DNA from: Candidatus Poribacteria bacterium
Lineage (GTDB): Bacteria; Poribacteria; WGA-4E; JAJDTR01
DNA: 64,000 nucleotides
Assembly (NCBI GenBank): GCA_965222225.1
Contig: CBDCTK010000002.1
Location: 1,984,001 to 2,048,000, forward strand
Reading direction: 5' to 3'
In this document: positions 7,460-52,715 of the stretch, piece by piece
How the letters are laid out: each line of letters starts with the position of its first letter
How positions within the stretch are numbered: the first letter of the stretch is position 1
Notes under the pieces: generated by a model
Databases searched by the model: none
Seen by the model: only the letters and a program-made list of their open reading frames with translations
Told to the model about the DNA's origin: nothing
Program-made: the position numbers and the translations under genes

Positions 7460-8000
7460 TTAATGGCGCGCTACAAAAACTCAAAAGCTGGTGCAGGATC
7501 TCTTTCGCAGTCATTGTTCATTCCTTTGAACGGTGCCCACCCTCCATCTTGCTCGTTTGAGGATGGTGGGCGGGTGATTTCAGCGCTACGCGAAGGATGC
7601 TAGTCGCGAAGCAGATTGTTACACGGTGGTCAGCGGGGCAAGGAGATCTCTATCGTCCTCGCTATCCGCTCGGTTGATCCCCGCCTACAGGGACGGATAG
7701 AGTATATCTGTTTGTATCTTCGGTATCCAATGAAGTTGGGTTTCGCTGTGCTCAACCCAACCTACGTCGTTGATTGGGTGTCTACCACATTGTGCTCCTC
7801 GCGAGCGCTTGAGAGAAACATGTACCCGTTCTATCGACATGGCGCACCTCCCGAGCCAGGAGTGGAGACGGTACGGGGTCGGAGGGATTTCTATTGGGGG
7901 TTCTATCCCAGTCACTATTCGCTCCATTGATGGTCGCGATTCGGAGATCGCTCCTACGGGGCGGGATTTACTATCGCCCTCCCTAATCAGTCGGTTGATC
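7312..8000. repeat. Covarying-hairpin element and REP cluster
   Basis: Cores at 7319, 7502, 7650, 7903, 7971. Confidence 0.85.
7735..7765 (-). repeat. REP family D (GTTGGGTTTC...CAACCCAACCTAC)
   Basis: GTAG-ended hairpin. Related copies near 47177, 50791, 58165. Confidence 0.7.
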
Positions 8001-8158
8001 CCCATACGGGGGATGGGATTTCGCGCCACTTTTGCTTGACTGAGACGGATTATAGTGCCATACTTCTATGGTACGGGAAACGGGAAGGATATCTGCCACG
8101 CCTAGGGGGCGTGACAGGATTCTTGAGGAGTTTCAGATAAAAAACAGTGAGGTGATTA

Positions 8159-9355
8159 ATGATGTTCACAAGTCGGATCGCAACTTTGGTTATTGTATGC
8201 CTGATTGCAGCCCCAGTTCTCGTGTTGTCCTCCTGCGATGAACTCGTGTCTATTTTGTCCGGGGGAGACATTGTCGAAGCGCCTGATGCAGTTTCTGTCG
8301 GCGTGGTTCTGCCGCGGACGGGCTATCTCGGTCCGGGCGAATTTGGTCCCGGCGCGCTTGTTATGGAGAACGGTTTTAACTTGGCGCTCGAAGAGATTAG
8401 CTACTCGCAACCCGAGAAGGCAATCCTGAAGTTCATCATTGAGGACGATCGAAGCACCGTAGACGGCGCGGTTGCCGCATTCAACACACTGATACATCAA
8501 GACAAAGTGCCGGTAATTCTCGGAGTTTGGACGTCAGAGGTTGCGCAGACCGTCTTTTCGATTGCGCAGGAGAATCGGGTTGTGGCTTTCAGTCCTGTCG
8601 TGGTAGCAGGCGGGTTGACCGAAATTGGCGACTTTATTTTTCGCGCGGCGCAACCCACGGATGTGCTTATTCCCGCGGGGGTTAAGGTGACGCAGGAGCA
8701 ACTCGGCTATCAACGGGTGGCGACAATTGCCGACTCTGACGATCATTTCGCCCGGACCAGCAGCGAAGAGCTAGAGCAGACGCTAAGTGATTCCGGCGTC
8801 GAGATATTGCAAGCCGAGAACTTCCAATCAGGTGAAACAGACTTTAACGCACAACTTACTCGCATAAAGGACGCTGATCCGGAGGCGATCTTCGTGTCAG
8901 CTCAACAGATTGAGACGATTCTAATCTTTAAGCAGGCTCGCGCACTTGGCATTACCTCCGATGTTCCGTTTATCACTGCGTCGCTGTCGTCGGACGACAT
9001 AGAAAGTGCCGAGGGGGCTGCCGAGGGAGCAATTACTTTTGCGTCATGGAGCAGCAAAACGGACACGCCGGGAAACCAAGCGTTTGTCGAGAAATACCGC
9101 GCCCGGTACGGACGGGAGCCTAGCGTATGGTCTGCGCTGTCGTATGCGTCCGTTCATATCCTAGCCGAAGCCGTCGCGAATGCCGAATCGACGGATTCAG
9201 TCGGGATTCGAGACGCTTTGGCGAATATTAGCGATTTTGACACCGTTTTGGGGCAGTTTTCGTTTAATGAGGTCGGCGACGGGGCTTACGATCCAAAGGT
9301 ACTGATCGTGAGGGATGGTAGGCTTGAGGCGTTCGGAGAAGGCGGCACGCCGTAG
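8159..9355 (+). CDS. Branched-chain amino acid-type ABC substrate-binding lipoprotein (LivJ-like)
   Basis: Lipobox LSSC, VGVVLPRTG, IEDDRST, DFNAQLTRIK, LGQFSFNEVGD. Confidence 0.88.
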   Translation: MMFTSRIATLVIVCLIAAPVLVLSSCDELVSILSGGDIVEAPDAVSVGVVLPRTGYLGPGEFGPGALVMENGFNLALEEISYSQPEKAILKFIIEDDRSTVDGAVAAFNTLIHQDKVPVILGVWTSEVAQTVFSIAQENRVVAFSPVVVAGGLTEIGDFIFRAAQPTDVLIPAGVKVTQEQLGYQRVATIADSDDHFARTSSEELEQTLSDSGVEILQAENFQSGETDFNAQLTRIKDADPEAIFVSAQQIETILIFKQARALGITSDVPFITASLSSDDIESAEGAAEGAITFASWSSKTDTPGNQAFVEKYRARYGREPSVWSALSYASVHILAEAVANAESTDSVGIRDALANISDFDTVLGQFSFNEVGDGAYDPKVLIVRDGRLEAFGEGGTP

Positions 9356-9647
9356 CGGAACGTGTTAAGTGGAGAGTGACGAGTGGAGAGTGAAACCTAA
9401 CACCTCAATCCAGGCCTAGAGTTGATTGTAAAGTTGGGTTTCACTAGATTTGAAAGGGTTCTAAACGGAATCGTGTTCCTGGAAGGGAGTGTGAGGACGG
9501 GTGTTTATGACTGCAGCCGTTCAACCCAACCTACGTGTTGACTACAACTTTCCGATAAGAGCCTGTTTGAATAATCGGTGGCAAAGCAATTTCGGTCACT
9601 TTGGGCGCGGCTTTTTCATGCTTTTGTGGTAGCCTGCTACATACCTG

Positions 9648-10021
9648 TAGGATCTCTATCGCACTCACTATCCGTTCGTTTGATCCCCGCAGGGGCTTTA
9701 GATTTGTTGTGTTGTCTTCGTTCTATAAACCTTTCGCACCTCCGGTGCTTACAAAGGCTGGTGGGCGGGGGACCTCTTTCGCACAGGATCTACTATCGCC
9801 CTCCCTAATCAGTCGGTTGATCCCAACCTACGGACCTGATGCCTATGGGGGGCGGGGCAAGAAGATCTCTATCGCACTCACTATCCAGTCGATTGATCCC
9901 CTCCTACGAGTTAGATGAGGTAAGTTCTATGGGATCTCTATCGATCAACCGACTGTATAGAATCAACTGAGCGGATGGCGAAGGCAATAGCAAATCCTGC
10001 TCATTATCCATTCCCTTGTTC
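9648..10021. repeat. Covarying-hairpin element cluster between convergent genes
   Basis: Cores at 9656, 9793, 9869, 9961-9990(-), plus partials. Confidence 0.85.
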
Positions 10022-10044
10022 GCACGTTGTGGCCGTGAAAGGTT

Positions 10045-10065
10045 GGTGCGCGATGCGCACCCTAC
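10045..10065 (-). repeat. REP family C (GGTGCGCGATGCGCACCCTAC / GGTGGGCAGTGCCCACCCTAC)
   Basis: Intact copies at 10045 and 47402. Interrupted copies near 17530, 32290, 34961, 52630. Confidence 0.75.
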
Positions 10066-10067
10066 AA

Positions 10068-11240
10068 CTAAAACGCCTCGAACGCTCCGTCGCGCGCAAT
10101 CAGAACGATTGGGTCATACACCGCGTCGCCGACGGCTTCGAAAGAGAAGCTGCCGAGAACGGTCTCAAAGTCGCTTGTGCCAGCCAACGCCTCCCGTATC
10201 GCACCCGAATCGGTTGACCCAGCCTCAGAAATCGCATTCACTAAGAGTTTCACGGACGTGTATGACAATGCGCTAAAAACCGAGGGCGCCGCGTCGTATT
10301 TCGCGGTGTAGTTCCGGACAAACGCCTGATTCCCCGGAGTTTCCGCCGTACCGGACCAAGCGGTAAACGTAATTGCCCCCTCCGCGGCTGTGCCCGCCTC
10401 CTGCACTTCGCCCAAACTCAGCAACGGTACAATTAAAGGTACATCGTCGGGAATCCCGACTTCGCGCCCCTGAACGAGTATCTTCGTCTGGTCAAACGAG
10501 TTCGCCGCGACAAGAACCGCCTCCGGATTCAAGTCCCGAATCCGCGTTAACTGGGCACGCAGATCTGCCTCGCGGGTAGTGAACGTCTCTGTCGTCAAAA
10601 TATCAACGCCAATCGCCGTGAGCGTCTCCGAATACACGTCATTGGTGCTGCGGGAGAACAGATCGAGGGTGTCAACTATAATTGCGACGCGCTGATACCC
10701 CAGTTTTTCTTGTGTAAGGTGTACACCAGGTGGGATCAGTTTGTCCACGGTCAGGTTCACGCGAAAAACAAAGTCCCCAAGCGCGCTCAGTCCTTGCGAC
10801 GCGGATGTCGGCGCAATTGCCACAATTTGATTCTCTTCCGCCACCGGGAAGGCTATCTCCGTTAGGGTCAATGTGGCGGGGCCCAGAAGCGCGACCACCC
10901 CGTCCTCGTGGATCAGCTTGTTGTATGCCGCAATTGCGCCCTCTGGTGTGCTCTTATTATCCTCAAGGATGAAGCGGATCTGCGGCGGCGCGAGCTGTGT
11001 GCTGTTAATCTCGTCGCGCGCCAAATAGAAGCCGTTTAGATACCTGATTATGTCCGGGTCGTCGGGGCCGTCGACGAAGGCGCCGGACTGCGGCATCACC
11101 ACGCCGATGAGGAGTTCATCGGGCAACGGCGTCGGCGCTTCGCCGCCGGAGAGAACCGACACCAATTCCTCACAGCCGCAAAGCCCCAAGATGAGCGCGG
11201 CGCTTATAACCAATAAACAGATTTTCTTGATAGGATTCAC
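10068..11240 (-). CDS. LivJ-like ABC substrate-binding lipoprotein (paralogue of 8159-9355)
   Basis: Lipobox LCGC; shared motifs ELVSVLSGG, TPGNQAFV, AVYDP. Confidence 0.88.
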   Translation of the reverse strand: MNPIKKICLLVISAALILGLCGCEELVSVLSGGEAPTPLPDELLIGVVMPQSGAFVDGPDDPDIIRYLNGFYLARDEINSTQLAPPQIRFILEDNKSTPEGAIAAYNKLIHEDGVVALLGPATLTLTEIAFPVAEENQIVAIAPTSASQGLSALGDFVFRVNLTVDKLIPPGVHLTQEKLGYQRVAIIVDTLDLFSRSTNDVYSETLTAIGVDILTTETFTTREADLRAQLTRIRDLNPEAVLVAANSFDQTKILVQGREVGIPDDVPLIVPLLSLGEVQEAGTAAEGAITFTAWSGTAETPGNQAFVRNYTAKYDAAPSVFSALSYTSVKLLVNAISEAGSTDSGAIREALAGTSDFETVLGSFSFEAVGDAVYDPIVLIARDGAFEAF

Positions 11241-11711
11241 TATGTTGGGCCTCCTTAATTCATTGCAATTTGTTGTAGGAATGAAACATATGCATCGTAG
11301 GTGAGGGGACGACTCGTTCCCCCTGTGAACGCGAGTATTTTATCCAACTCGGCGACATAATTCAAGCCCGTTGCGAAGCCTTGGGGCGCTAATCTGCCGA
11401 GTTGCCCTGTTACGTTCCCGGTTCCGCTTGCGTCTGATGGCGGGCTACTGTTAAACGGTAGCCGTGATGGCAGCGTTTCTTGGCGCAGAAGTTGTCCACA
11501 TTCAACGCACCGGATATGGTCTAACCCGCTTACCGGGGGTTCGGCGGTGCTACCGGATTGCGGCGACCGAGACATGAGGATAGGGACTATTCGTGCGGTT
11601 ACACGGAATTTGGGGGTTGGTTGGGGGGATTTTTTGAGGGCGTAGGCGGCATGCGATCGGCATGAAGTGACCCCGAAAATCTCGTCAGTTTGCTTGAAAT
11701 TTCAATATATC

Positions 11712-11739
11712 TTGCTTGGAAGGTGAGATATGGTATAAT
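11712..11739 (+). promoter_or_regulatory. Sigma70-like promoter
   Basis: TTGCTT-16 nt-TATAAT with extended -10 TG, upstream of GAGGAGG RBS. Confidence 0.45.
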
Positions 11740-11772
11740 CTAGGTAGTTATTCAACGAGGAGGAAGATTATC

Positions 11773-12000
11773 ATGGCAACAGAGAAGGAAAAGATTCACA
11801 TGGCATCGCCTGCCATCGACTCAATGCCAGGACGAACAGCGGAAGCAGACCACGAGGAGTGGGATGGAACGCAAGAGTTGCTTGATGATCCTGTCTTTAT
11901 GAAAAGCCATGAACGGGCGGAGAGGGACAGGGCAAATGGAGTCTCAAAGAAGTTTGCGGAAATCAGAAGAATTGAATTGCTCTGTCGAACAATCTCGTAA
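11773..12000 (+). CDS. Small antitoxin-like protein
   Basis: Strong RBS. EEWDGTQELLDDPVFMKSHERAERD resembles the C-terminal part of type II antitoxins. Confidence 0.45.
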   Translation: MATEKEKIHMASPAIDSMPGRTAEADHEEWDGTQELLDDPVFMKSHERAERDRANGVSKKFAEIRRIELLCRTIS

Positions 12001-12240
12001 CGGGAGCTAAAAAGGATTAACCTTCCTCTTTGATGACCGATAGTATCGCACGTGATCCCTCTCCCGTAAATTCCCACAAGTTACTAGACCCTTCACGAAT
12101 CGCCTCCAATGAAACCGAAATCTGTAACTGGACAATATGAGCAAGTAGAATAATCTTCGGGACCGAGAGTCTGAAGATAAATATCTATCCTAAAGGCGGG
12201 GAACATCCGACCAATCCTTCCGCATTGAAGGAAATAAGAG

Positions 12241-13610
12241 ATGACAGAGGAACGAAAGCAGGAACTGAGGCGGTTGCTTGAGGAAGCGATGGGGGATCTG
12301 GAAATACGATCGCGTTTACGCGATAGGGATTCATTGCCTGTGGATGTACATACATATAGACAGTACCTACAACTACTTTGGACATTTTATCCATCATATT
12401 CCTTATGGGGGCCAATGAGTTTTGAACCTGAGATGGTAAGTAAGGTGACTCAATCAAAAATCATCGGCTTTATCAGAGATGAATTTGCTCCATTTATTCA
12501 CGAAGACAAGATTTTGTCCGCTCGTCGTTTGTACAAGGTGGTCCAGACCATGGATTGCCTCTGGAGAGACCTCTGGCGCAACTTCTGAAAATTGCCGTTG
12601 TTAAGGGAATTGAGGAGTCGGTATCGGCTTTTGATGAGTATGTTGGAGGGACACATGATGGTTCTTTTCAGTATATTGCACTACTTAGCGGAGTAACGCT
12701 AAGAACAGAAATCCAAGTCTTTGAGGGAATTCGGCTTGTCCCGCTTCCTAATTCAACATCAGAACTCCCGCGCTATTTACCTGATCCTTCTGTCCTTCCG
12801 TTTGGAATGTTCGCCTCCCAGTATACAGTGCTCATCATTGATCTCTTTGTATCTCCAATATTACACAGGCCTCTCCCAAGAACAATTCAAGAATACTCCG
12901 AGCTAGTAAATCCCCTATTTCGGGATGAAGTAAGTAGCGGGAAGCGTGTAGGCCTCAAGGAGAATGATTTCTATAAGACGTTCTGTCAAGCATTGTCTCT
13001 AGCTTACAATTTCGCGGTGGAAACTGTTGTTAAATGGCGATTGTCAGCGGAGACTGATTTCTTCCATCCGTACAACGAAGAGGGAATAGTTCATACTTCT
13101 TCTCCGCTTGATAGTCCTACTGAGGTCGGAGATGATCAGATGGAGCAAGCCAAACGCATATACAAGATATTGGTCAACCCGAATTCAGAGGTTGTGGCAA
13201 AATTGAAGATACCGATTGACAGATGGATAAAGTCGAAAGCAGGAACAGATCCTGTCAATAAAATTATTGACTTAGGCATAGCTCTAGAAGCCCTCTATGT
13301 ACAAGATGGTGGCGGGGATATCACTTATAAATTTGCTATTCGTGCTGCTCGGCACTTGGGAGCGGACAAAGAGGATCCCGAGAAGTTGCCGACAAAGTTC
13401 AAAGACATATATAGGTGCCGTTCTAATGCGGTTCATAGCGGAACACTTGACCCAGATGCTAGATTTGGAGAAGAGCGGATTCCTATATCAGAGTTTATCG
13501 AAAGAGCGCAGGGCTTATGTCGACAATCTATAATACAGATTGTGAAAGATGCAAAGGAAGATGGGGAATTCCCCGAGTGGGATAGTTTGATATTGGGCAG
13601 CAAACCTTGA
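12241..13610 (+). CDS. ApeA-like HEPN domain protein (frameshift near 12520)
   Basis: ORFs 12241-12588 and 12555-13610 overlap and read as one gene. C-terminal DLGIALEALY...YRCRSNAVH (Rx4H HEPN motif). Confidence 0.72.
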
Positions 13611-13636
13611 CGGGTAAGATCAACCTTGAATATAAT
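13607..13636 (+). promoter_or_regulatory. Sigma70-like promoter
   Basis: TTGACG-18 nt-TATAAT upstream of the ATPase gene. Confidence 0.4.
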
Positions 13637-13746
13637 GGCAGGCATGAACTGAACTCAGTGGATAGTTGAGAACCGTAATCGTTGTGCGATGGCTGGCGAA
13701 AGAAGATTGACTAACCGAGCAAGGCGTTCAAATAAGGAGTTGTAGC

Positions 13747-14868
13747 ATGTTACGAAAACTCGAAGTAAAGGGTCTGAATAACCGCGTTAATGGTGCTTGG
13801 GAATTCAATGAAGATTTGAACATTATTACGGGAAAGAATGGCGCAGGAAAAACAACCTTATTGAAACTTATTTGGTTCTTAATCAGTGGTAATCTTGAGC
13901 GATTTATTCCCGAGTTTCCGTTTCGGTCAGTTTCTATCGAAACTGATTCGTTTTCGCTGTTTATTGAGGTTGCGTCTAGAAAGGGGAAACTTCGTCTCGA
14001 GTCTGCTGAGCACAGTCCAATGGAGACGGAAATTAGCATACCATTACTAACGCCAGATGATGAAGAAATACACAAGTTTAACGTCCGCATTGCAAAGGCG
14101 AAGCAGAGCAGTCTATTCTTTCCAACCTTTCGAAGACTTGAAGGGGGTTTTGCCAGGGATTCTGGATACTATGTGGAGGAGGATTCAGTTGCGTACCATG
14201 CTGATCGACGCGCCCGAAGATTTGGAGATCGAGCGACAGAACTGCTTCAGGATGCGATGTCGGGGTTTTCAACTGAGATATCGGTTTATGATCACAAATT
14301 CATCGCTTCAATTTCAACCAACGACATACGTGACCTTGTCACGGAGAAATACGCCGATGTGATGGGAAAGAGAAATGATCTTAATGTAAATTTGTCGAAA
14401 GACATTATACAGAGAATCTCCAAACGCAGTGAAACCGACGATGCAATCCGAATATTGGACGGCATTCAGAAAACAGTTGAATCGGTGAATGAGCAACAAG
14501 ATGCGTTATGGAAGCCCTTTTCTGTGTTAGCGGAGCGAATTCGGGGCATTTTTCAATACGAAGGAGTTCGCCTCACAGCGAGCATTACACTTGGAGAGGT
14601 GAAGGAGGCTATCGAATCTGATAAACTTTCTGCTGGCGAGCAGCAGATGCTCAGTTTTCTGTGCTACAATATCTTTTGCGAAGACGCAGCTATTTTCATT
14701 GATGAGCCAGAGTTAAGCCTCCACGTAGACTGGCAAAGACGTCTACTACCAACTTTGCTTGAACAGGGTACGGGCAACCAGTTTTTCATTGCCACACACT
14801 CGCCGTTCATCTATGCCAAGTATCCTGACAAAGAGATTCAGTTAAGCGAAGACCGCGGAGGAGATTGA
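13747..14868 (+). CDS. ABC/AAA_21-type ATPase (PARIS AriA-like)
   Basis: Walker A GKNGAGKT, LSAGEQQ signature, Walker B IFIDEPELSLH, ATHSP. Confidence 0.85.
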   Translation: MLRKLEVKGLNNRVNGAWEFNEDLNIITGKNGAGKTTLLKLIWFLISGNLERFIPEFPFRSVSIETDSFSLFIEVASRKGKLRLESAEHSPMETEISIPLLTPDDEEIHKFNVRIAKAKQSSLFFPTFRRLEGGFARDSGYYVEEDSVAYHADRRARRFGDRATELLQDAMSGFSTEISVYDHKFIASISTNDIRDLVTEKYADVMGKRNDLNVNLSKDIIQRISKRSETDDAIRILDGIQKTVESVNEQQDALWKPFSVLAERIRGIFQYEGVRLTASITLGEVKEAIESDKLSAGEQQMLSFLCYNIFCEDAAIFIDEPELSLHVDWQRRLLPTLLEQGTGNQFFIATHSPFIYAKYPDKEIQLSEDRGGD

Positions 14869-15629
14869 TGCCAAAAACAGATTTGACGGTAGATGAATGG
14901 GTGGCGGCGCTTGGTCACGCGGAATTTCCAACGGTCATCGTTGAAGGCGATGACGACATGCGAATATATCGGTGGCTGGAAGAGCGCGTTAGTAATCAGA
15001 AGGTAGATGTGCAGCCTGTAGGCGGTAGAAAGACTCTTCTCTCGGTATACGCGAGGAGAGATGAATATGCTGATTTGCCAGTTGCTTTTTTAGCCGACAG
15101 GGATTTGTGGTTGTTCTCGGGGATCCCGCCGGACTATCCAGACATCATTTGGACCCAAGGGTACAGCATTGAGAATGATCTCTACGCAGGTGCCGATTTG
15201 GAAAAGTTGTTAGATGCCCATGAAGTTCAAGAACACCGACAGCTATTAGATTCAATCATCAAATGGTTTGCGTTTGAAGTCGAAGAGTATTTGGAAGGAA
15301 GGGATGCGCACGTTGATATACACATCAACAGAGTTGTACCGCCAGGTTGGACCGAAATGGATAGAGATTTCTGCACATGTCGCGGATTTCGTTTGCCTAA
15401 TGAGGAACTCCATCAAGAAATAAAGGACGAATATCAGTTTAAGCTGAGAGGCAAATCGCTGTTTGAGGTACTGGTTCGCTTTCTAAATGCTCCGAGTCGT
15501 GGTTCCAAACATAACACCTTACCACTTCACGAGATTGCGTTGAAGATGACACCATCTCACGAATTGATGAATCGGTTGATAAAGGAGATAGACCGCACAA
15601 TCGCGGAACACACGCCAGTGAGTCGATGA
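14865..15629 (+). CDS. DUF4435 / TOPRIM-like protein (PARIS AriB-like)
   Basis: IVEGDDD, GGR, FLADRD, YSIENDLY and RGK motifs; coupled to the ATPase stop. Confidence 0.75.
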   Translation: MMPKTDLTVDEWVAALGHAEFPTVIVEGDDDMRIYRWLEERVSNQKVDVQPVGGRKTLLSVYARRDEYADLPVAFLADRDLWLFSGIPPDYPDIIWTQGYSIENDLYAGADLEKLLDAHEVQEHRQLLDSIIKWFAFEVEEYLEGRDAHVDIHINRVVPPGWTEMDRDFCTCRGFRLPNEELHQEIKDEYQFKLRGKSLFEVLVRFLNAPSRGSKHNTLPLHEIALKMTPSHELMNRLIKEIDRTIAEHTPVSR

Positions 15630-15733
15630 AATGAATATAGCAATACACATGGAATACATAATTGTTTGCTGATGCCAAATCGGCTAAGTAGGAATCGGGA
15701 ACTATCAAAAATTGATGTGTAAGGATACATATC

Positions 15734-16897
15734 ATGGCTAAATCTGTGAAAGCACTCATTACGCCGGAAGTTCTCAAGTGGACGCGTGAAAGACGCATCA
15801 AAATGTCCCTTGACTATGCGGTGAAGAAATTAGATGTAAAGCCCGATCAACTTGAGAAGTGGGAAGCAGGGACGGATCAGCCTTCCTTCGCGCAATTGAA
15901 GGCGATCGCCAAGCTCTACAGAACGCACATCTCTGTTTTCTATTTGCCGGAGCCACCTACTGAATTTAAACTGCTCGCGGATCACCGCAGATTGCCGGAG
16001 TCTCTCATTGCAGACGATGAGCAAGCGTATAAATTGAATTCCAACGTTCTAGAGGCGTTTGAGCGGCGAGAGGCGATTATTGAATTTTATGGATTGTTGG
16101 AGGATCCCCCGCCTGAAGTAACGCTGGAGCTGGATGAAACAGATAATCCGGAGCGTGCCGCACAAGAAATTAGAGAATTTCTTCAGTTTAATACTGGACT
16201 GCTACAACAATGTAATGATGATCGTGCCACGTTGAAATTTTGGAGAGAACGACTCGAAGCTAAGGGAATTCTCGTGTGTCAGACATCCGTCAACCCACAT
16301 CTCTCCATTGCACTGCAAACTGTGCGAGGGTTTTGCATCGCACAGAAACCGTTTCCGGTGATTGTGCTCAACCCCAAAGACAGCCCTTACGGTCGCGTAT
16401 TTACCATCATTCACGAGTTGGTACACGTTGCACTTGGGAAAAGCGTCATACAGAACACGGGATTTAGGGGGCATGCGAATCTGAACCCGACTGAAGTCTT
16501 CTGCAATGAGGTGGCTGGTGAAGTCTTGGTTCCCAAGGATGAATTGTTAGAGAGAGTTAATCTGCATACGCTTGAAACAGACCTTCCTAAACTCTCCAAA
16601 CACTTTCATGTGAGTCGCGGGGCCATTATGACACGGTTGCGAACAATTGGTTATATTTCGAAACCAACCTACGAAGCGTATATACAGAGCCAACAGGAAA
16701 AGTATAAAGATAGTCCACCCACCGGCGGACCTATACCGTATCATACGCGGCTGCTTAATGCTGCCGGAGAGCACTTCGCGCGAACCGCTTTTACGGCTTA
16801 TTACGAGCAGAAAATCACACTCGCCGATTTAGCTGCTTCCTTTTCCAAGTGCGATCCAAAACACATTCCCAAACTTGAAAGCGCTATCTTCGCATGA
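15734..16897 (+). CDS. XRE-HTH plus ImmA/IrrE family metallopeptidase
   Basis: N-terminal HTH (KWEAGTDQPSFAQL), FTIIHELVH (HExxH), EVFCNEVAGEVLVP. Confidence 0.88.
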   Translation: MAKSVKALITPEVLKWTRERRIKMSLDYAVKKLDVKPDQLEKWEAGTDQPSFAQLKAIAKLYRTHISVFYLPEPPTEFKLLADHRRLPESLIADDEQAYKLNSNVLEAFERREAIIEFYGLLEDPPPEVTLELDETDNPERAAQEIREFLQFNTGLLQQCNDDRATLKFWRERLEAKGILVCQTSVNPHLSIALQTVRGFCIAQKPFPVIVLNPKDSPYGRVFTIIHELVHVALGKSVIQNTGFRGHANLNPTEVFCNEVAGEVLVPKDELLERVNLHTLETDLPKLSKHFHVSRGAIMTRLRTIGYISKPTYEAYIQSQQEKYKDSPPTGGPIPYHTRLLNAAGEHFARTAFTAYYEQKITLADLAASFSKCDPKHIPKLESAIFA

Positions 16898-17391
16898 ATT
16901 CGCTGTTCAATCAAAACATGGTCGTTTACAGCCTTGACCTCAGTGCGCTGTTTGCTGCTTTTAACGAGCGGTATCCAATCGCAAATTTCCCCGCTTTTTG
17001 GTGCAAATTCGAGGAATTAATCAAAAACGATCGACTGAAAATTGCGGAAATTGCTTTCGATGAAGCACTCAGAGACGAAGGCGTTAAGAAATGGTGTAAA
17101 GAGAATCAATTAAGACCAAATTTCCGATGGGCAACTAATGACCCTATACAGCGTAAGGTTAGTGAGATACTAAAGCTATTCCCAAAACTGCTAGACGATC
17201 GGCGGGGAAAATCAGGCGACGACCCATGGGTGATTGCTTTAGCAATGGTATCCCAGAACTGCATCGTCGTGACCGAAGAAAAGCCGACGGGTAGTCCGCT
17301 TAGACCTAAAATCCCTGATGTCTGTGCTCATTTTAACCTTCAGTGTATTCAACTGGTCGAACTTGTACAAAGAGAGAATTGGGTCTTTTAG
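16894..17391 (+). CDS. DUF4411 / PIN-like protein
   Basis: YSLDLSA, DPWVIALA, VVTEE, KIPDVC; ATGA overlap with the IrrE gene. Confidence 0.8.
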   Translation: MNSLFNQNMVVYSLDLSALFAAFNERYPIANFPAFWCKFEELIKNDRLKIAEIAFDEALRDEGVKKWCKENQLRPNFRWATNDPIQRKVSEILKLFPKLLDDRRGKSGDDPWVIALAMVSQNCIVVTEEKPTGSPLRPKIPDVCAHFNLQCIQLVELVQRENWVF

Positions 17392-17539
17392 CGAAGAATC
17401 CGGTAGGCAACTGAACTTTCGGGGTGGGAGTATGTCGGATGATGTGACGCTGGCGCCTAGTGAATTCAGCGCGACTCGGAACATGCTGATTCGGTAGCAG
17501 CACAAGGTAACAAGCCAGAATAAAAGGCTGGTGCGCAGG

Positions 17540-17575
17540 GGATCTCTATCGCAGTCATTGTTCATTCCCTTGATC
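17540..17575 (+). repeat. Covarying-hairpin element inserted in a family C REP
   Basis: ggtgcgcag[gggatctctatcgc...ttgat]cgcaccctac. Confidence 0.85.
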
Positions 17576-17704
17576 GCACCCTACAACTATTATGACAAGC
17601 TTAGCACGTACGAAGGGCCAACGTCCCCTCGTTAGAATCACGGGGCATACTGAAAGTTGGGGTACATTTTCCGACTCAAACGCGCAAACGAAAGGAGTCA
17701 GACA

Positions 17705-18237
17705 ATGATAAACGGTAGAGTGGCAATTCTTCGGATCGTCACCTGCGCGATTGGGGTCGTAGTTTTTCCCCTACTGCTTTTTAGCTTTATTCCATACGCA
17801 TCGGGTCTTGATGCCTGAGTATTCGGCTATGAGGCTCATGTATGGGATTCTTATGCTTTCTTGCCAGCTATGGGACTGCCATTTCCATTTATCCTGTCGA
17901 TTGCTGGCATTGGGGCTCTTCTCGGCCTCCTGCCGGGGATCGCTTGGGCGATTGACCATAGGTCGGCGCGGCGGCGAGTGACGAAGAGGTTGAGCGGCTC
18001 TCGAAACGTTTCTCCGAGATTCTCGAAAGCGGGAAATTGACTTCGGAGCGCCTTGATGAGCTTATTGACGCTGCGGAGGAGATGGCGATTGATGCCTATG
18101 CGCAAATCTATGGAAACGCGTTGCTTGAGGCGTTTGATAAAGAAGTGCTTCGGGAGGCGTTAATAGCAACCAGCTCAGGCATCGGCGCGGAGCAGACGGA
18201 GCCGGAGGAAGCAGAGCAGGAACGGGAAGGTGAATGA
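17705..18237 (+). pseudogene. Disrupted hypothetical membrane protein
   Basis: AAGGAG RBS and ATG, hydrophobic segments spread over several frames, acidic C-terminal ORF 18037-18237. Confidence 0.3.
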
Positions 18238-18428
18238 GTTGTGTTGGAGCGAGCCGGGGGTTCAAAGTAAGGTTTCGGAGCCGCAGGAAGGGAAATCAAC
18301 GGGGTGATGATTGAAGATTGTTCCTGCAGGAATATGAAATAGAGAAACCGAGTTTTAAGAAAAAAAGTCTGCTTCTTCCTCCTATCTTTTCCTTCTTCCT
18401 CACTCTCCACTAGCCACTCACCACTGTT

Positions 18429-19421
18429 CTATCGATTTCCGTGTTTTACCTGCTCCCACGTCATAATCAGCTTGTCCTCTGGAGAAACCAACGTTGGTGA
18501 AGTATCCAACCATGTTCCGCTGTTATCATCTGCCGGATGATTTGTGAGATCAAGAGGATTAGAGCCATCGACGTTCATGCTGTAGATTTCAAAGTTGCCA
18601 TCGCGCACGGTATTGAAAAGAATCTGAGATCCGTCCGGCGACCGCCATGGCCCCGCATCCCATCCACGGTGATTGGAAAGATTGACCGGATGTGTTCCGT
18701 CGACATTCACCACGAAGACATCCATATCCAAGACCTCGCCGATGTCCGATTGAAACGCTATTTTGGTCCCGTCCGGCGACCAAGAAGCGTGTGTGGAGTC
18801 CGTGAAACCATCCGTAAGATTAGTCAAATTCGAACCGTCGGCGTTCACGACATAGATGCTCCGGAGAAAGTCGGGATCCGCAAGCCCGAGAAAAGCAACC
18901 TTTGTTCTGACCGGCGACCAAGAAAGAAATCCTGTGCTGCTACCGGGAAGATCAGCCAGTTTGACGCGCCCGGAACCGTCAGCGTTCATGACGAAGATTT
19001 CCCAGTCTCCGTTGCGATCCGACTCGAACACAATCTCCATAGCATCTGGAGACCAGCGCGGGTGTTTGTCCCATCCTTCGTCATTCGTAAGATTCACACG
19101 ATTAGCGCCGTTTGAATTCATGACGAAGATTTCCGCAGGTCCCCGCACCACGTCTAGCACGCCACCGTCGTTCACAAACCTCTGGTCGCCGGGGCGTTCT
19201 GATGCGACGAGAATCTTCGTGCCATCGGGCGACCAGACTAGGTTTGCGCGTACGTCAAGTTCCTCGTATAGATTAACAGGGTCGGTACCGTCAGGGTTCA
19301 TTACGAAGAGCGAATACCTATCGCCATCCCGGTTCGACGAAAAAAGAATGCGCGTGTCGGCAAAAACCCGAATCGCTACTGCCATCAAAACCAACATCAG
19401 AACAACTATCAGATATTTCAT
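18429..19421 (-). CDS. Exported TolB-like (PD40 repeat) protein
   Basis: Signal peptide, repeated WSPDG.KI.F.S.R.G..EIFVMNADG, C-terminal VSPEDKLIMTWEQVK. Confidence 0.88.
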   Translation of the reverse strand: MKYLIVVLMLVLMAVAIRVFADTRILFSSNRDGDRYSLFVMNPDGTDPVNLYEELDVRANLVWSPDGTKILVASERPGDQRFVNDGGVLDVVRGPAEIFVMNSNGANRVNLTNDEGWDKHPRWSPDAMEIVFESDRNGDWEIFVMNADGSGRVKLADLPGSSTGFLSWSPVRTKVAFLGLADPDFLRSIYVVNADGSNLTNLTDGFTDSTHASWSPDGTKIAFQSDIGEVLDMDVFVVNVDGTHPVNLSNHRGWDAGPWRSPDGSQILFNTVRDGNFEIYSMNVDGSNPLDLTNHPADDNSGTWLDTSPTLVSPEDKLIMTWEQVKHGNR

Positions 19422-19691
19422 TGCACGCCTTCCTTACAAGTCGGATAAATGCTCTGTCACCTTCTATTTCGTGAAAACTCTTGGGTCAACCGACGTGAAG
19501 CGAATCCCACCCAATCTCCCGTTGCGCGATTGTATCACAAAGCGTCTAGCAACGCAAACGGCACCTAATTGTACGGGATCGAGTGAACGAATTTAGGCTT
19601 GTCTAGAATTAGATTCGACCGCAAACAGATCAGGTTTTCTGTTTCCTTCCTTTTGCGCCCGTGCTATAATGACAGCGATGGGGGCTATGAC

Positions 19692-19907
19692 ATGGACAAG
19701 ACAATCATCTCGGTGGCAGTCGTGGGCGGGGGATCGACGAAAGAAATGAATCCGGCGCTGCCGTATACGCCGAAGGAGATAGCCGACGCCGCAATCGAAT
19801 GCTGCGCGACGGGTGCGGCGATTACGCACATCCACGTCCGCAACCCCGAAACCGGAATCGTGTGTTCACGGTTTGAACTCTTCCAAGAGGATCAAGCGAA
19901 TGGATAA
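19692..19907 (+). pseudogene. Truncated 3-keto-5-aminohexanoate cleavage (Kce/BKACE, DUF849) gene
   Basis: [12 protein letters not shown]...[12 protein letters not shown]...[10 protein letters not shown]. Ends after about 71 aa in a hairpin element. Confidence 0.8.
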
Positions 19908-20095
19908 TGAGCGCGATAGCAAGTCCCGCGCGATAGAAAGTTTTGATAGATATCCTCTCGCCCACCATCACCTCAGACTCGGTAGGAGCGATTTCCCGAT
20001 CGCGACCGATTGACCGACTGAATAAGGATCAAATGACCGGTTAGGGAGTGCGATAGGGATCTTTTCGCGATAGAGAATATTGATAGAGATCCCAA
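19890..20095 (-). repeat. Covarying-hairpin element cluster
   Basis: Cores at 19890-19919 and 20027-20056, iterated tails, REP near 19982. Confidence 0.85.
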
Positions 20096-32139: not shown

Positions 32140-32330
32140 GAGATTGAGCGATTGACTAACGAGAGATTATATGACTGAATATGGAATGCGATAGAGTTCC
32201 CCTAGAAATCCCTTGTTAATTCCTACATTGCCACCTCTTGTTAAGGTTTGTAAGAGCTCGCTCATGCGAAGTATATTGCAGGAAAAGGCTGGTGGAATCC
32301 CTATCGCAGTCATTATCCATTCCATTGATC
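32140..32330. repeat. Covarying-hairpin elements and REPs
   Basis: Degenerate core 32165-32194(-); core at 32301 inside a family C REP. Confidence 0.8.
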
Positions 32331-33646: not shown

Positions 33647-33719
33647 GATTCTGTTTGAAATCACCGCAACCGGTAGTAGGAGCGATCTCCGAATCGCGAC
33701 CGATTGTCGGGAATCGGAA

Positions 33720-33780
33720 GGGATCTCTATCGCGCTCCTTATCCAGTCGCTTGATCTCAGTTGATCGTTCGGTTGATCCC
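33720..33780 (+). repeat. Covarying-hairpin element with two truncated tandem ends
   Basis: Core at 33727 then tcagttgatc and gttcggttgatc. Confidence 0.85.
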
Positions 33781-34969: not shown

Positions 34970-35410
34970 GATCAAAGGAGTGAGTAGCGACTACGATAGA
35001 GATCCCCTGCCCACCATTTCTTGTAGCAATCGAGAGCGATCGGATAAGGAGCGTTCAACTGAGTGATTAACGAAGGCCATAGAAGATCTTGATAGAGATC
35101 CCATCGCGACAGAACTCCCGTGGAACTCCTCCCGGCCTTTGAAAGCGCCAGCGGCGCGACAGGTGTATAGCGCGCCATTATTCCGTCAGGGATAATGGCG
35201 CGCTATAGATAAAACGTCGGGGCAAGATGCCCCTCCTACATAAAAATGTAAGGCAGTGCCTATTCTACATATCTATCAAGAACACTCTTTCAAAGCTAGT
35301 CATAGAGCGAAAGATGAGTGTTTCTTGCTGAAAGAATCATTCCGACAGGAACGATGGTGTGCTATACACCTTCGGGATTTCTACCGCACTCGCTATTCGC
35401 TCCCTTGATC
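34970..35410. repeat. Covarying-hairpin elements and REPs
   Basis: Cores at 34970-34999(-), 35053-35082(-), 35381. Confidence 0.8.
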
Positions 35411-40644: not shown

Positions 40645-40682
40645 GATCAAATGAGCGAATAGCGAATACGATAGGGATCTTC
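40645..40682 (-). repeat. Covarying-hairpin element inserted in a GTAGGGGCGGGG REP
   Basis: gtaggggcggg[gatcaa...cgatagggatct]tcccgccccgccc. Confidence 0.8.
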
Positions 40683-41942: not shown

Positions 41943-42025
41943 GATTAAGCGAACGAACAGGGAGCGCGATAGTAAATCCCGTGCGATAGGGATCCTAACG
42001 CGATAGAGCTCCCATAGAGATCCCT
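41943..42025 (-). repeat. Covarying-hairpin element with iterated tails inside a family A REP
   Basis: gtaggagc[gattaa...gcgatag + tails]ctcccggtcgcgacc. Confidence 0.8.
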
Positions 42026-42435
42026 CTCCCGGTCGCGACCTCCTGTCGCGAGTAAAACTCGCTCCTACAGTGGACGTGCAATGATGGGGGTTCCATATTC
42101 GATTTAATGATTGGCGATCCCAATCCTTTTTTCGGGGCAAAGGAACAGAATCGTTACAAGATCGAAAAACAATATTCACACAATCGTCATCTGTTTGTAA
42201 CAAGCCCCTGTTATCATCCAAGGCGTTGAGGAAGTAGCATCATCATCCGTGCCGCTGTTATGCGGCTGACCGTGGCTACCGATTACCGAGCCGGAATGCT
42301 GCTGTGTGATGCGGATTTGGCAATTCAGACCTAGCACGTGAGGGGCGCGCCGAGAAGAGAAGCACAATGCTAGTCTCAATGGCTCAGAGCATAAAACACT
42401 CAACGCTGCGCTGAATTGAAAAGGAGGTTCAATTT

Positions 42436-42798: not shown

Positions 42799-42824
42799 CA
42801 AGCTGAGGATGAAGGTTAGGTATC

Positions 42825-45373: not shown

Positions 45374-45392
45374 AACGTTAGGAGGTGTCACC

Positions 45393-46250: not shown

Positions 46251-46269
46251 AACGGCAGGAGGTGTCACC

Positions 46270-47175: not shown

Positions 47176-47528
47176 CTGGGTTTCACGGTGTTCAAACCAA
47201 CCTACGGACTATGTTGATTTGAGGATTTCTATCGCTAGTGCGATTGGATTTATTATCGCAGTAAAGCCCGTTTGAAACATAATTAGAAGAGTCATCTTCC
47301 TACATTTTAAGTATTATTCTCTGTCGCCCCGCTGGGGCTTAGGTGCGCGGAGGTTTCGGTGTATCTATACACCTCTCGCACCGCTGGCGCTCTCCGAGGC
47401 TGGTGGGCAGTGCCCACCCTACAACTAGAATTGGCTATCCGGTCCCAGCGGTTAGAGAGTGCCCTGAATGGTCGGAGGCGTACGGAGGGGTTAGGGGATG
47501 CGCCGGGCGGTTATTGGTTGGCGCGGCG

Positions 47529-50359: not shown

Positions 50360-50894
50360 TCGGAAATACTCCTTTGATTTATCTAGGGCAGTTGGAATCT
50401 GGTGGCAGAGCCGTTCTTGGTCGTACGGGTTGTCATTTGGCTTGAAGACAAGATGAGACAAAGGGTAACACGGAGATTGTGTTTTTGCAACTTACATCAT
50501 TTGATTTACATACGATACCAGACGGATGTTACGGGAGGTTGTCGCTTTCATGACTTTTTCATGCCAATGGGAGGGGGAGGATAAACTTCCGAAAAAAAAG
50601 CGCTGCTATGAACCGGTCGTGGAGTGAGGGAGAGAAGAAGGGAAGGGGGGAAGATTGGAAGGGACGCGGATTAGCATGGATGGGGCAAGAGGAGAAGGGA
50701 GATTGGGGATTTGGTGGCCGAGGATTGTGCGTAGGGCTTACAGAGGAAGAAACCGAATTTTCAAGCGAAAACTTGGTTTCGTGCAGTACGTTAGGTTGGG
50801 TTGAACGGCTAAAAACAAACGACAATTAATGCTATATGTTAGTGAGACCTGACCTCCAGGTCTGCTGCCATATACCGATTTGGTTTAACCCAAC

Positions 50895-51335
50895 CTACGT
50901 ACTGTCAACGCCGTCAGCCTTGACACTTGTCCGTTCTCTAACTTCCGCACGGAGATCGTTTGCCACGCCGTCTATTTTGTCTATCACTTGCATTATGTCC
51001 CTATGATGCGCCCGTGAATTGGCATCTATCTTCTCATCGAGTCGGGTGAAGCCAGCGTCCATCTTCTCATCGAGTCGGGTAAAACCAGCGTCCATCTTTT
51101 CATCAAGTTTCAAAATATCGGAGCGGAACTGCCGCATATCCTCTCGGAGTTCCTTCATCACCGCTTGAATTGAGACTGCTACCAAGTTTATCTGTTCTTG
51201 CAGTCTATCATCAGCTCTGTTCATCTCTGCTCTCGTCGCCACTGATGTTGTGATTTTCCACCAGAGCGCGCCAATCCCGATTAGCACTCCAATCAGCGGT
51301 ATGACCGACGGTACGATGATTTTGATCCATTCCAT
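50895..51335 (-). CDS. Hypothetical protein: N-terminal TM plus coiled coil with 11-aa repeats
   Basis: GAGGA RBS; LDEKMDAGFTR repeated. Confidence 0.65.
   Translation of the reverse strand: MEWIKIIVPSVIPLIGVLIGIGALWWKITTSVATRAEMNRADDRLQEQINLVAVSIQAVMKELREDMRQFRSDILKLDEKMDAGFTRLDEKMDAGFTRLDEKIDANSRAHHRDIMQVIDKIDGVANDLRAEVRERTSVKADGVDST
51028..51107. repeat. 33-bp in-frame tandem repeat (about 2.4 copies)
   Basis: atcttctcatcgagtcgggtRaaRccagcgtcc x2 plus a partial copy. Confidence 0.8.
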
Positions 51336-51600
51336 CAGATTCCTCGTTCGTTTTAGGCCTGCGATTTTTTTGACTATAGCACCTTCTCCGCCGATTGTCA
51401 ATCTGCATCGCTCGCAATTAACCTGATTTGCCTGTAATATTCTGCCAGATTTAACGTTTTTGCAGTCTCAAAGGGCAAAAAAAAGCTGAATCGGAGTCAA
51501 TAATATGCTTACAAGGCAAGTATGGGATCTTTTGTCGAATTTTGGATTCGATGATTGAAGATTCTCTAGAATCAGGTAGGATTGTCACGGGGTTTAGGTC

Positions 51601-51629
51601 TTGGCAACCTGATGGGATTGGTGTATAAT
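51601..51629 (+). promoter_or_regulatory. Sigma70-like promoter for prpB
   Basis: TTGGCA-17 nt-TATAAT. Confidence 0.5.
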
Positions 51630-51697
51630 AGGCGTTATCGTGGAACACATTGAGTTGTGAGAAATGAATCGTATTTGTGGTGGAGGAAGACGGTTTA

Positions 51698-52567
51698 ATG
51701 GGCGAAATCTATTCTCCCGGTCGGCGTTTTCGTGATGCGTTATCCGTAGAATGCCCGTTGCAGATTGTTGGCGTTATCAACGCTTATGCCGCAATCATGG
51801 CGGAACGTGTGGGGTTTCGAGCTATCTATCTCTCCGGATCGGGGGTGGCAAGCGCGTCTTACGGTTTGCCGGATTTGGGCATGACCACGCTAAATGACGT
51901 GCTGGAGGATGTGCGTCGGATTACGAACGCGACCGAACTGCCGTTACTCGTGGATGCGGATACGGGTTGGGGCAACGCGTTTATGATTGCGAAGACCGTT
52001 CGCCAGATGATTAGGGCGGGTGCCGCCGCTGCCCATATTGAAGATCAGGTGAGCGCCAAGCGTTGCGGTCACCGCCCGAACAAGGAAGTTGTAAGCCCGG
52101 ACGAGATGGTAGACCGAATCAAAGCCGCCGTGGATGCGAAGACGGATCCGGACTTTGTTCTCATGGCGCGGACGGATGCGCTCGCCATTGAAGGGCTTGA
52201 TGCCGCTATCGAACGTGCGTGCCGATACAAAGATGCCGGAGCGGATATGATTTTTGCGGAAGCCGTTACCGAGTTGGAGCAGTACCGAAAGTTTGCAGAC
52301 GCGGTCTGCCTTCCGATTCTGGCGAATATAACGGAGTTTGGCAAAACCAATCTTTACACAACGGAGGAACTCAGGGGCGCCGGAGTGAGTTTGGCGCTTT
52401 ATCCGCTGTCCGCGTTTCGCGCGATGAATGCCGCCGCGCTCCGTGTGTTTCAGGCGTTGCGGGATGAGGGGACGCAAAAGCGCGTGGTTGATATGATGCA
52501 AACGCGAGACGAATTGTACGAAATCCTCAATTATCATGAGTACGAGCGGAAGATTGATCGGTTTTAG
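51698..52567 (+). CDS. prpB: 2-methylisocitrate lyase
   Basis: [43 protein letters not shown]. Confidence 0.95.
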
Positions 52568-52639
52568 AGGAAGAACGGGGAATTGAGGATTTAACAAACG
52601 CAGGTCGTGTTAGGGGGATTACGAAGGATGGTGGGCAGG

Positions 52640-52715
52640 GGGATCTCTATCGCAGTTGTTATTCACTCCTTTGATCCCACCCTACTATCGCCCTCCCTAT
52701 CCGGTCGGTCGATCG
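52640..52715 (+). repeat. Two covarying-hairpin elements, the first inside a family C REP
   Basis: Cores at 52647 and 52685. Confidence 0.85.

Follow-up and report, generated by a model that had tools for sequence, protein, structure and literature searches.

A 36-nucleotide hairpin repeat in a Candidatus Poribacteria genome is a mobile unit that enters REP hairpins and its own copies in one polarity

We describe here a short repeat, H, in a stretch of 64,000 nucleotides (nt) of a Candidatus Poribacteria genome (G000, 5.70 Mb in two contigs, 50% G+C), namely positions 1984001-2048000 of contig C2, referred to below as the window. H is a repeat of 36-38 nt, GGGATCTCTATCGC..TTGATC, with 36 copies in the window. 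It is a discrete mobile unit, present or absent at homologous sites, and enters DNA in one polarity just 5' of a C (mostly at YG^C, the caret marking the point of entry). Its targets are hairpin-forming DNA: repetitive extragenic palindromes (REPs) of at least six families, including the REPs of three clades of REP-associated tyrosine transposases (RAYTs), other copies of H and, in rare cases, genes. Copies are oriented by replication strand and not by the direction of genes. An initial annotation of the window had described a hairpin element inserted into REPs with one precise end, one ragged end and no target duplication; all the sites it named were re-read and are as described within a few bases.

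Results

Sequence and copy number of H

The core pattern of H matched 34 times in the window and not once in 100 shuffles. Genome-wide, a profile search (nhmmer, E <= 0.1) returned 1,278 matches, 913 of them near full length; the 905 that occupy exactly 38 model columns are used below as full copies. The consensus of 840 genomic copies in register is GGGATCTCTATCGCaCTCgCTATTCAcTCgcTTGATC, in which a GGGATCT leader is followed by an imperfect hairpin running from ATCGC to TTGAT, without coding capacity. Its right edge is sharp, information falling from 2.0 to 0.5 bits just past TTGATC, and its left edge is softer, at 0.7-1.1 bits across GGGAT. Eight variable positions form 213 distinct combinations (subtypes) among the 905 full copies. 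H is mostly extragenic, with the midpoints of 90 of the 1,275 matches on C2 lying within crude open reading frames (ORFs), and about 37% of full copies (336/905) stand outside all recognised repeat contexts. Density is patchy, from 0 to 52 copies per 64 kb. Four 64-kb bins of C2 hold at least 36 copies (52, 47, 42 and 36), the last figure being that of the window's own bin.

H is present or absent at homologous sites

Empty orthologous or paralogous sites exist, as six empty/filled comparisons with relatives or paralogues reveal. The family-D hairpin downstream of an IS200-like Y1 gene (RAYT-D, below) is filled in G000, G001 and G005 (CACCTGT[GGGGATTTC..TTGAT]CCC..) and empty in G002, G009 and G004 (CACCTGTCGCCCC..), the flanks of G002 and G005 being alignable over more than 100 nt, and the family-A REP downstream of a second Y1 gene, of the L003 type, is filled in G007 and empty in G006. 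At C2:1604345, H stands where G005 has two letters, and at C2:3909958 the sequence is longer by 36 nt (H) than three paralogues and four relatives. In a giant gene (a 2,418-codon ORF at C2:2917913-2925169, with H at 2921272), 81 nt including H replace 9 nt in frame. This insert is missing from six of six aligned relatives, including G005 at 99% flank identity; the empty site already carries CTTGATCC (8 nt) at the right junction, and no donor for the 45 extra letters on the left side of the insert was found elsewhere in this genome. Finally, at C2:2965616, H takes the place of 133 other letters of G003, G007 and G005, with TAGAGA common to both states on the left and TC on the right.

Target classes are occupied by many subtypes: 12 among 39 fills at family-E site 2, 14 among 23 at E site 1, 12 among 13 in family B, 11 among 22 in C, 20 among 23 in A and 17 among 36 in D. 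The initial view of filled REPs as H insertions agrees with these 11-20 subtypes per site, yet does not cover every copy, as some are expansions of one composite; a single subtype makes up 23 of the 39 E-site-2 fills, and another expansion of this kind 15 of the 36 family-D fills. REP+H composites also multiply as units. An approximately 130-nt composite of D hairpins, H and a family-E REP (window 7250-7395) has dozens of further copies here and in related genomes, with identities of 82-93%, and may itself be a mobile unit. Intergenic DNA can be wholly replaced between species of one genus: the spacer between conserved genes at window 2980-3380 is not alignable with G001, G002, G005 and G009, each of which has its own mosaic of H, REPs and D hairpins. 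Short-read contigs of four public runs on window 1-20000 break at repeats (ends at 4372, 6547, 7412 and 17530), and no gap of 30-40 nt was present among the rows listed.

Several observations concern H within genes. H is stop-free in at least one frame of each strand and is read in frame in long ORFs, for example as GITIALPIRSLDP or GSNERIASAIEIS; examples on C2 lie at 2921272, 2965616, 3738216, 3909958 and 701598, and 19 matches are deep in crude ORFs longer than 600 nt. The H-bearing gene copy at C2:3909358-3910501 also lacks 12 nt, between two CAAACG repeats, that all paralogues and relatives keep. The middle of the giant gene (G000:C2:2917913-2925169, G005:C1:4390885-4392049) is 99% identical between two species that otherwise share about 80-90% in coding DNA, a similarity that suggests recent exchange of this segment between them.

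Insertion is polar, with a precise right and a ragged left junction

In six or more REP families, H keeps one polarity and occupies the same positions. Of the 905 full copies, 241 have the tag CTAC no more than 16 nt beyond their right end, and 22 have the reverse tag GTAG there. The TTGATC end abuts the 3' arm motif of family E in 56 of 214 instances, that of family B in 28 of 152, those of family C in 31/86 and 5/36 and that of family A in 38/327, and it abuts the arm motifs of family D in 15/47 and 26/51; the remaining REP arm motifs are mostly ordinary empty hairpins. The naming of several GTAG-REP families as targets in the initial annotation is therefore right as to several REP families, and wrong as to family D, which has no GTAG tag. 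Its placing of insertions in stems needs similar amendment: insertion points lie mostly at the boundary of loop and 3' arm (families B, C and E site 2) or, in family D, just 5' of the hairpin, with E site 1 (e.g. 32293) truly inside the 5' arm.

For 214 of the 905 full copies an empty paralogous site was recovered as an exact match (10 nt + up to 16 nt + 10 nt), compared with 68 when left and right flanks were paired after shuffling. Among the 158 distinct targets, the base of the empty target at the right junction was C in 150, in line with the TTGAT end abutting a target C as first described. At the left junction, 137 of the 158 had lost 0-3 target letters (none in 39, one in 39, two in 42, three in 17, four in 5 and 5-14 in 16). 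The missing letters were mostly G, CG, TG, TCG or ATG; since G is mostly the last of them and C stands at the junction, the usual target is YG^C, at which the 36 nt from GGGATC to TTGAT replace up to three letters. The base to the left of GGGATC in H copies was G, A or T, with no motif. Flanking direct repeats of 2-6 nt were not above shuffled pairing, except at k=3 (42 vs 11, with the boundary set at columns 1-38), an excess that is possibly an effect of the REP-E palindrome. Over the 158 distinct targets, the asymmetry of one precise and one ragged end is borne out, with no target-site duplication.

H is a hairpin supported by covariation

In 806 distinct copies, columns 16-32 form Watson-Crick pairs in 69% (30% expected), 17-31 in 91% (40%), 20-28 in 93% (35%) and 21-27 in 83% (49%), and every one of these covarying pairs shows at least three pair types. 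Two mismatches are conserved, T.C at 18.30 in 746/806 and C.T at 19.29 in 765/806 copies, and columns 11-13 pair with columns 35-37. Pair counting over the 36 window copies gave 90.6% of cells paired, compared with 73.3 +/- 1.4% in shuffles (0/500 reached the observed value) and 20-42% in a control with slid partners, and the covariation score was 0.444 vs 0.134. Folding energy was dropped as proof of structure. The claim rests on covariation because the folding energy of single copies is not distinguishable from that of shuffles; H is a real hairpin by covariation, not by energy.

H inserts into its own copies and splits them

The initial annotation named REP hairpins as the target, which proved too narrow, as H hits its own copies at least as often. 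Among the 905 full copies, 110 are bordered in the same orientation by an outer head on the left and an outer tail on the right, 147 by an outer tail only, on the right side, and 124 by an outer head only, on the left. Nesting inside an oppositely oriented H accounts for about 48 copies vs 381 nested in the same orientation. The outer copy has two hot spots, CTAT(CG)^C with 37 cases (in another 17 the loss is nil or ambiguous) and CACT^C or close by with 19, the right junction always being at a C.

In the 27 cases that could be tested, outer head and tail complemented each other 22 times at pair 17-31 and 16 times at pair 16-32, compared with 91% and 69% in intact copies and 40% and 30% by chance. 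This complementarity identifies the fragments as halves of one split copy. Above the same relative score threshold, the genome holds 1,224 head, 1,009 middle and 1,416 tail segments, with at most 10 in reversed-sequence controls. Since heads are almost as numerous as tails and the two pair up, several hundred H copies have been split, truncation is at most a minor source, and the idea that tail fragments arise mainly by 5' truncation was rejected; about 400-600 copies are broken by nesting or splitting. The arrangement of H followed by gatagagatccc (38 copies) was considered as a fold-back of the copy's own head and rejected, there being 3.6 mismatches to the own head and 2.7 to random heads; here H has entered another H of inverted orientation at gagtG^Cgatag. 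Representative window copies and empty hairpins are listed in Table 1.

Table 1. Copies of H and empty REPs in the window, with examples of insertion sequences (IS). Positions are those of the window unless C2 is given; H coordinates count from the column before GGGATC, hence a shift of a few bases from the numbering of the initial annotation.
Feature	Position	Strand	Context or remark
H filling family-B GTAG-REP	52639..52676	+	ggtgggcag/H/ccaccctac; empty form at 47402-47422
H filling family-B REP	34970..35007	-	
Empty family-B REP	47402..47422	+	ggtgggcagtgcccaccctac; ggtgggc agt gcccacc ctac
H filling family-C REP	7642..7679	+	cggggcaa/H/cccgcctac
H filling family-C REP	9861..9898	+	cggggcaa/H/ccctcctac
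H in family-C-like REP	40645..40682	-	ggcggggcgg/H/cccgcccctac
Empty family-C REP	1580..1601	+	cggggcaagatgcccctcctac
H in family-E REP, site 2	17538..17575	+	ggtgcgca/H/gcaccctac
H in family-E REP, site 1	32293..32330	+	inside 5' arm; ggctgg/H/gcagtgcgcaccctac
Empty family-E REP	10045..10065	+	ggtgcgcgatgcgcaccctac
H in family-A REP	4353..4390	+	H/gctcctac
H in family-A REP	41943..41980	-	
H in family-A-like context	1461..1498	+	ctac directly after H (more target lost)
H in family D	9648..9685	+	acctg/H/cccgcagggg
H in family-D context	7311..7348	+	acacctt/H/ccactctgggg; within ~130-nt composite repeat
H in family-D context	35373..35410	+	
Empty family-D hairpin	47321..47339	+	ctgtcgccccgctggggct; ctgtcg cccc gct gggg ct
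H nested in H	1705..1742	+	outer head ggggatttctatcgcac left, outer tail gttatccattcgtttgat right; 2 nt of outer copy lost
Full H, then two tail fragments	33719..33778	+	tcagttgatc and gttcggttgatc, both ending TTGATC
H inside oppositely oriented H	58362..58411	-	at gagtG^Cgatag; reads H then gatagagatccc
IS examples	C2 469118-470397, 262924-263992, 98186-99172, 177245-178047		

Distribution among relatives and bias for one replication strand

H occurs in nine of nine other genomes of its own genus (g1; 567-1,262 pattern matches) and in four of four genomes of a genus of another family (g4; 194-205). One further genome of the order had three matches, the remaining 26 that were searched had none, and a reversed control pattern gave 0 everywhere. 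Related genomes contain at least 125 H-carrying stretches, all of which, among the matches listed, are from Candidatus Poribacteria. The family-B and family-E REPs are confined to g1 (144-367 matches), apart from five stray genomes with 1-2 matches, and H of g4 sits in other REPs, e.g. gttgggtttc/H/tctacccaacctac. Empty sites, 11-20 subtypes per REP site and a range beyond that of REP B/E together mark H as a separate unit and not a fixed part of REPs. Loci L025-L080, probably from the second H-positive genus, have the leader (G/A)A(A/G)A(A/C)ACTATCGC in place of GGGATCTCTATCGC, with the hairpin and the TTGATC end kept.

Between two plus-strand genes, 178 copies lie in the plus and 268 in the minus orientation; between two minus-strand genes, the counts are 159 and 194. 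In every gene configuration H follows the local GC skew, with 59 plus and 201 minus copies between plus-strand genes at negative skew, and 99 plus and 41 minus between minus-strand genes at positive skew. The 668 single-orientation clusters are divided 195 plus to 108 minus at positive skew and 100 to 265 at negative skew (odds ratio 4.8, p 5e-22), figures drawn from a patchy GC-skew profile and from clusters that are related sequences, not independent events. Both orientations occur in 80 of 748 clusters. As H orientation follows GC skew, H as written tends to be on the G-rich strand, which has the sequence of the lagging-strand template.

Candidate enzymes

Five Y1_Tnp matches were found in the genome. 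RAYT-D, IS200-like, is an intact gene of 157 amino acids (aa) at C2:3080258-3080728 between inverted family-D hairpins (REPtron C2:3080100-3081020). Family-D flanks accompany it in the 15 loci examined, missing only upstream in G002 and G029, and the D hairpin changes with genus (CACCTGTCGCCCCGCTGGGG, CACATGTCGCCCC.., ..GCTCCGCTGGAGC, ..GTCCCTACGGGAC). Because D flanks RAYT-D and varies with genus, it is the cognate REP of this IS200-like RAYT and, having no GTAG tag, cannot be kept as the GTAG-REP it was first taken for. The L003-type Y1 gene (RAYT-A) is broken here by one TAG and flanked by family-A GTAG-REPs. The L005-type gene is a C-terminal fragment here; its full-length relatives are flanked by other GTAG-REPs, with no H in seven of seven loci. 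Each Y1 clade tested has its own REP. H, copies of which stand on both sides of the IS200-like gene, was considered as the REP of that gene and rejected, the conserved inverted flanks being D, with H within D in some genomes only; it was likewise rejected as the REP of the L003-type or L005-type genes, whose flanks are family A and other GTAG-REPs, respectively.

RAYT-D was found in 9/9 genomes of g1, 2/4 of g4, 7/7 of the H-free genus g6 and 5/10 of the H-free genus g3; the L003 type in 6/9 of g1, 2/4 of g4 and 6/7 of g6; and the L005 type in 7/9, 0/4 and 3/7, respectively. A gene resembling a reverse transcriptase (RT) was found in 5/9 of g1, 1/4 of g4 and 1/7 of g6, with stops in four. Its match in this genome is weak (27.5 bits, below the Pfam cut-off on its own) and lies in a 670-aa protein beside a type I restriction R subunit (C2:4499563-4505067); the gene looks like a defence-island RT, and its relatives are often broken by stops. 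Neither an IS110 transposase nor TnpB was found in this genome. Four high-copy IS families (about 47, 24, 10 and 8 copies), named by eye from their ORFs, are zinc-finger-bearing, IS4/IS701-like, IS5-like and IS1-like; the first we take to be IS1595/ISXO2-like. The four were examined for H-like ends and have none, their ends being unrelated.

Discussion

Relation to known systems

H falls outside REPs and their inverted doublets (REPINs), derivatives of IS200/IS605, MITEs (miniature transposable elements with inverted repeats) of DDE type and CRISPR repeats. Its ends, GGGATC and GATC, have only the palindromic GATC in common, with no terminal inverted repeats of the MITE kind. As a CRISPR repeat it was rejected, since no arrays of H were found: 20-mers occurring at least four times at 50-90 nt spacing belonged to two unrelated tandem arrays only. 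Rfam covariance models gave no match at gathering score over the whole window, no tRNAs were found there, the viral contigs searched for the H pattern had no match, and among the papers listed in literature searches on dispersed repeats in Poribacteria none describes such repeats.

The nearest likeness may be to the very small dispersed repeats (SDR4-6) of Nostoc and its relatives, 21-27 nt long, which Elhai et al. in 2008 reportedly regarded as mobile and found inside other repeats with no linked transposase. H likewise measures tens of nucleotides, is dispersed, stands inside other repeats and has no linked transposase. It differs from the SDRs as described in being longer (36 nt) and in belonging to another phylum, and we add for H covarying stems, the YG^C junction rule, replication-strand polarity and orthologous empty sites. 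HIP1 may be an insertion site of SDR5, according to one report (PMC5861425), and the REPIN authors place SDRs among unexplained short palindromic repeats (PMC3116915).

Similarly to REPs and REPINs, H is a high-copy extragenic hairpin with covarying stems, conserved mismatches and a strand bias like that of HUH systems acting on single strands. In contrast to them, the H consensus carries no GTAG or CGTC tag in either of the two orientations examined and no cognate RAYT is flanked by H, and whereas REPINs are inverted doublets, H is single or nested in the same orientation (mixed clusters, 80/748). H also inserts into REPs, not beside them. The TnpA-REP of Escherichia coli is described as needing a stem mismatch, cutting nearby single-stranded DNA with low specificity and transferring strands (PMC3333891). 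Di Nocera et al. (2013) report that Anabaena variabilis, Thermomicrobium roseum and Halothiobacillus regularly have GTAG/CGTC repeats inserted in small palindromes of other kinds, together with in-frame inserts of REPs or Rickettsia palindromic elements (RPEs) in ORFs (PMC3733652). H resembles these in nesting in palindromes and entering ORFs in frame. There, however, a tagged REP is the insert, and in two of the species insert-free target palindromes were not found (PMC3733652); H is untagged, REPs are its targets and empty targets abound.

Members of IS200/IS605 act on single strands without target duplication and prefer the lagging-strand template, as two papers put it (PMC2806898, PMC3333891), and the Y1 transposase of ISDra2 is stated in one of them to cleave after TTGAT, its target site (PMC2806898). 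With IS608 and ISDra2, H shares hairpin ends on single strands, the want of target duplication and a replication-strand bias. TTGAT, however, lies in the flank left of the ISDra2 element and is the own right end of H; moreover, H has one hairpin and not a left end plus a right end, a ragged left junction, no left target motif and no TnpB in the genome. IS1397, ISPpu9 and others are reported to target REP hairpins, where their integration is site-specific and of fixed orientation (Tobes and Pareja 2006, PMC1525189; PMC12288879), just as with H. They are autonomous elements of 1-1.5 kb with their own transposase, whereas no transposase of the IS110 type was found here.

A proposed one-ended entry into folded DNA

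The account that we favour, and which we judge evenly poised between right and wrong, is that H is a non-autonomous element of about 36 nt whose integration takes place at the replication fork, in hairpins of single-stranded DNA, and leaves one junction precise and the other imprecise. Integration would occur on the single-stranded lagging-strand template, where REPs and H would fold. The 3' junction, TTGAT|C, would be made precisely, by a nick and strand transfer or by priming at that end, and the 5' junction would be resolved imprecisely by template switch or repair. Such imprecise resolution would account for the small deletions, for the larger deletion or added sequence met with now and then, and for the stacked heads and tails; filled REPs would afterwards also multiply as composites. 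The catalyst would act in trans, with a Y1 HUH nuclease as the leading candidate, without support from co-occurrence. That an HUH enzyme lies behind the movement of H is perhaps so, and we put it forward tentatively. A nuclease is suggested by the same H ends in unrelated contexts, by the conserved unpaired bases and by the likeness to single-strand HUH systems, as well as by cleavage after TTGAT in ISDra2 (PMC2806898) and by the mismatch requirement, cutting and strand transfer of E. coli TnpA-REP (PMC3333891). As for the initial proposal of a parasite of REP hairpins, the targets are as claimed; HUH transfer, target-primed synthesis and repair at nicks, the mechanisms offered with it, are not separated by the data.

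Several observations weigh against this account. Known HUH transposition has two precise junctions and a conserved left target, whereas the left junction of H is ragged and its left flank unconserved. The three gene insertions look like microhomology events: one has the 8-nt CTTGATCC and 45 extra letters, another TAGAGA and a 133-nt deletion, and the third an atypical head. The letters in front of REP arms showed no footprints of excision. E. coli TnpA-REP cuts at C^T outside the hairpin (PMC3333891), whereas H targets YG^C at the loop. H is found near Y1 genes only inside their REPs, and none of the Y1 genes has H ends as such at its borders. The three Y1 clades and the RT-like gene were each rejected as mobiliser, none of them tracking the distribution of H over 40 relatives (9/9 in g1, 4/4 in g4, none in g3 or g6). 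Thermodynamic folds of single copies were no better than those of shuffles (z -0.23 to +0.71). With regard to strand bias, clusters and targets are related sequences and not independent events, and empty B and E REPs, read in the orientation of CTAC, are biased in the same way (52 and 23 at positive skew, 19 and 70 at negative skew), so that part of the bias of H may be inherited from its targets.

It is possible, although we incline to doubt it, that H represents a distinct ultra-small class of element, in which a site-specific cut at TTGAT^C is joined by a single strand transfer to a cut, or an exposed 5' end, at YG^C of any folded REP, H or gene hairpin of the lagging-strand template and replication resolves the rest, no cognate transposase flanked by the repeat being needed.

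Alternative explanations

An enzyme-free origin, by which a nascent strand stalled in a folded REP or H switches through 1-8 nt of microhomology to an H 3' end elsewhere, copies it and returns imprecisely, with gene conversion spreading the fills, is possible too and, in our estimate, rather unlikely. It would fit the microhomology seen in unique DNA (CTTGATCC in the giant gene; TAGAGA and TC at C2:2965616), the extra unmatched sequence and the 133-nt deletion at those two events, the stacks that contain heads without tails and tails without heads, and the dominance of one subtype at some sites (23/39, 15/36). The lost letters, moreover, mostly end in G and lie under the GGG of H, some copies having GTG for GGG at equal length, and no candidate enzyme is co-distributed with H. 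Template switching nevertheless predicts that donor flank would be copied to a variable extent, yet hundreds of unrelated contexts have one and the same base as the right end of H, and its left end usually begins at GGGATC. At most REP junctions the microhomology amounts to only 1 nt; the conserved mismatches and loop, alongside free covariation of the stem, point to a protein that recognises the fold; and no reason is given why H, and not the equally abundant REPs, should be the universal donor.

Asymmetry of junctions, with a precise 3' and a ragged 5' end, is of the kind usually described for target-primed elements. An RNA route, in which a short transcript starting with GGG is reverse-transcribed at a nick 5' of the target C, would account for that asymmetry in H, for the G-rich start of its leader and for tails being slightly more frequent than heads (1,416 vs 1,224). 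We consider this route very improbable: head and tail counts are near equal and matching, which indicates mostly split and not truncated copies; H orientation is independent of neighbouring transcription; nothing in the window matched an Rfam family; and the one weak RT-like gene found is patchy (g1 5/9, g4 1/4), with stops in several.

Still more improbable is that H is immobile alone and that REP+H, D+H and H+H composites multiply as passengers of REPs, REPINs and larger repeats. As the sole explanation this is contradicted by empty and filled states at homologous sites, including unique gene sequence, and sits poorly with up to 20 H subtypes at one site, a phyletic range wider than that of the REPs occupied and the 336 of 905 full copies outside recognised repeat contexts, even though the approximately 130-nt D+H+REP composite occurs at many places at 82-93% identity and filled E REPs have common outer flanks with one subtype in 23/39. 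An equally slight chance attaches to H as a selected functional site, such as a strand-oriented protein-binding hairpin spread by selection and gene conversion, for although its replication-strand skew is as in oriented chromosomal motifs, the repeat and its unpaired bases are conserved in two genera and its frames are open in both directions with in-frame copies in genes, self-nesting breaks about 400-600 copies, H disrupts REPs and genes, its density runs from 0 to 52 per 64 kb and orthologous intergenic regions turn over completely between species.

Significance

How repeats that are too small to code, and that have no known transposon ends, spread in bacterial genomes has been an open question since they were first reported. 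H is one of the smallest mobile DNA elements seen, and each genome offers about a thousand copies of it, in this one and at least 13 others of species level. Its structure is defined and includes conserved unpaired bases, its junctions obey a simple rule, its empty targets abound, some events in unique gene sequence are recent, and it bears a replication-strand signature; oligonucleotides for biochemical tests can be designed from these properties. REPs are usually regarded as parasites or as domesticated elements, and here they themselves host a smaller parasite, which inflates and scrambles the intergenic DNA of an uncultured phylum of sponge symbionts and also enters its proteins in frame. 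If the reading of one-ended transfer from hairpin to hairpin is true, H would be a parasite of several REP-RAYT systems at once, and a tractable model for the movement of repeats shorter than 40 nt.

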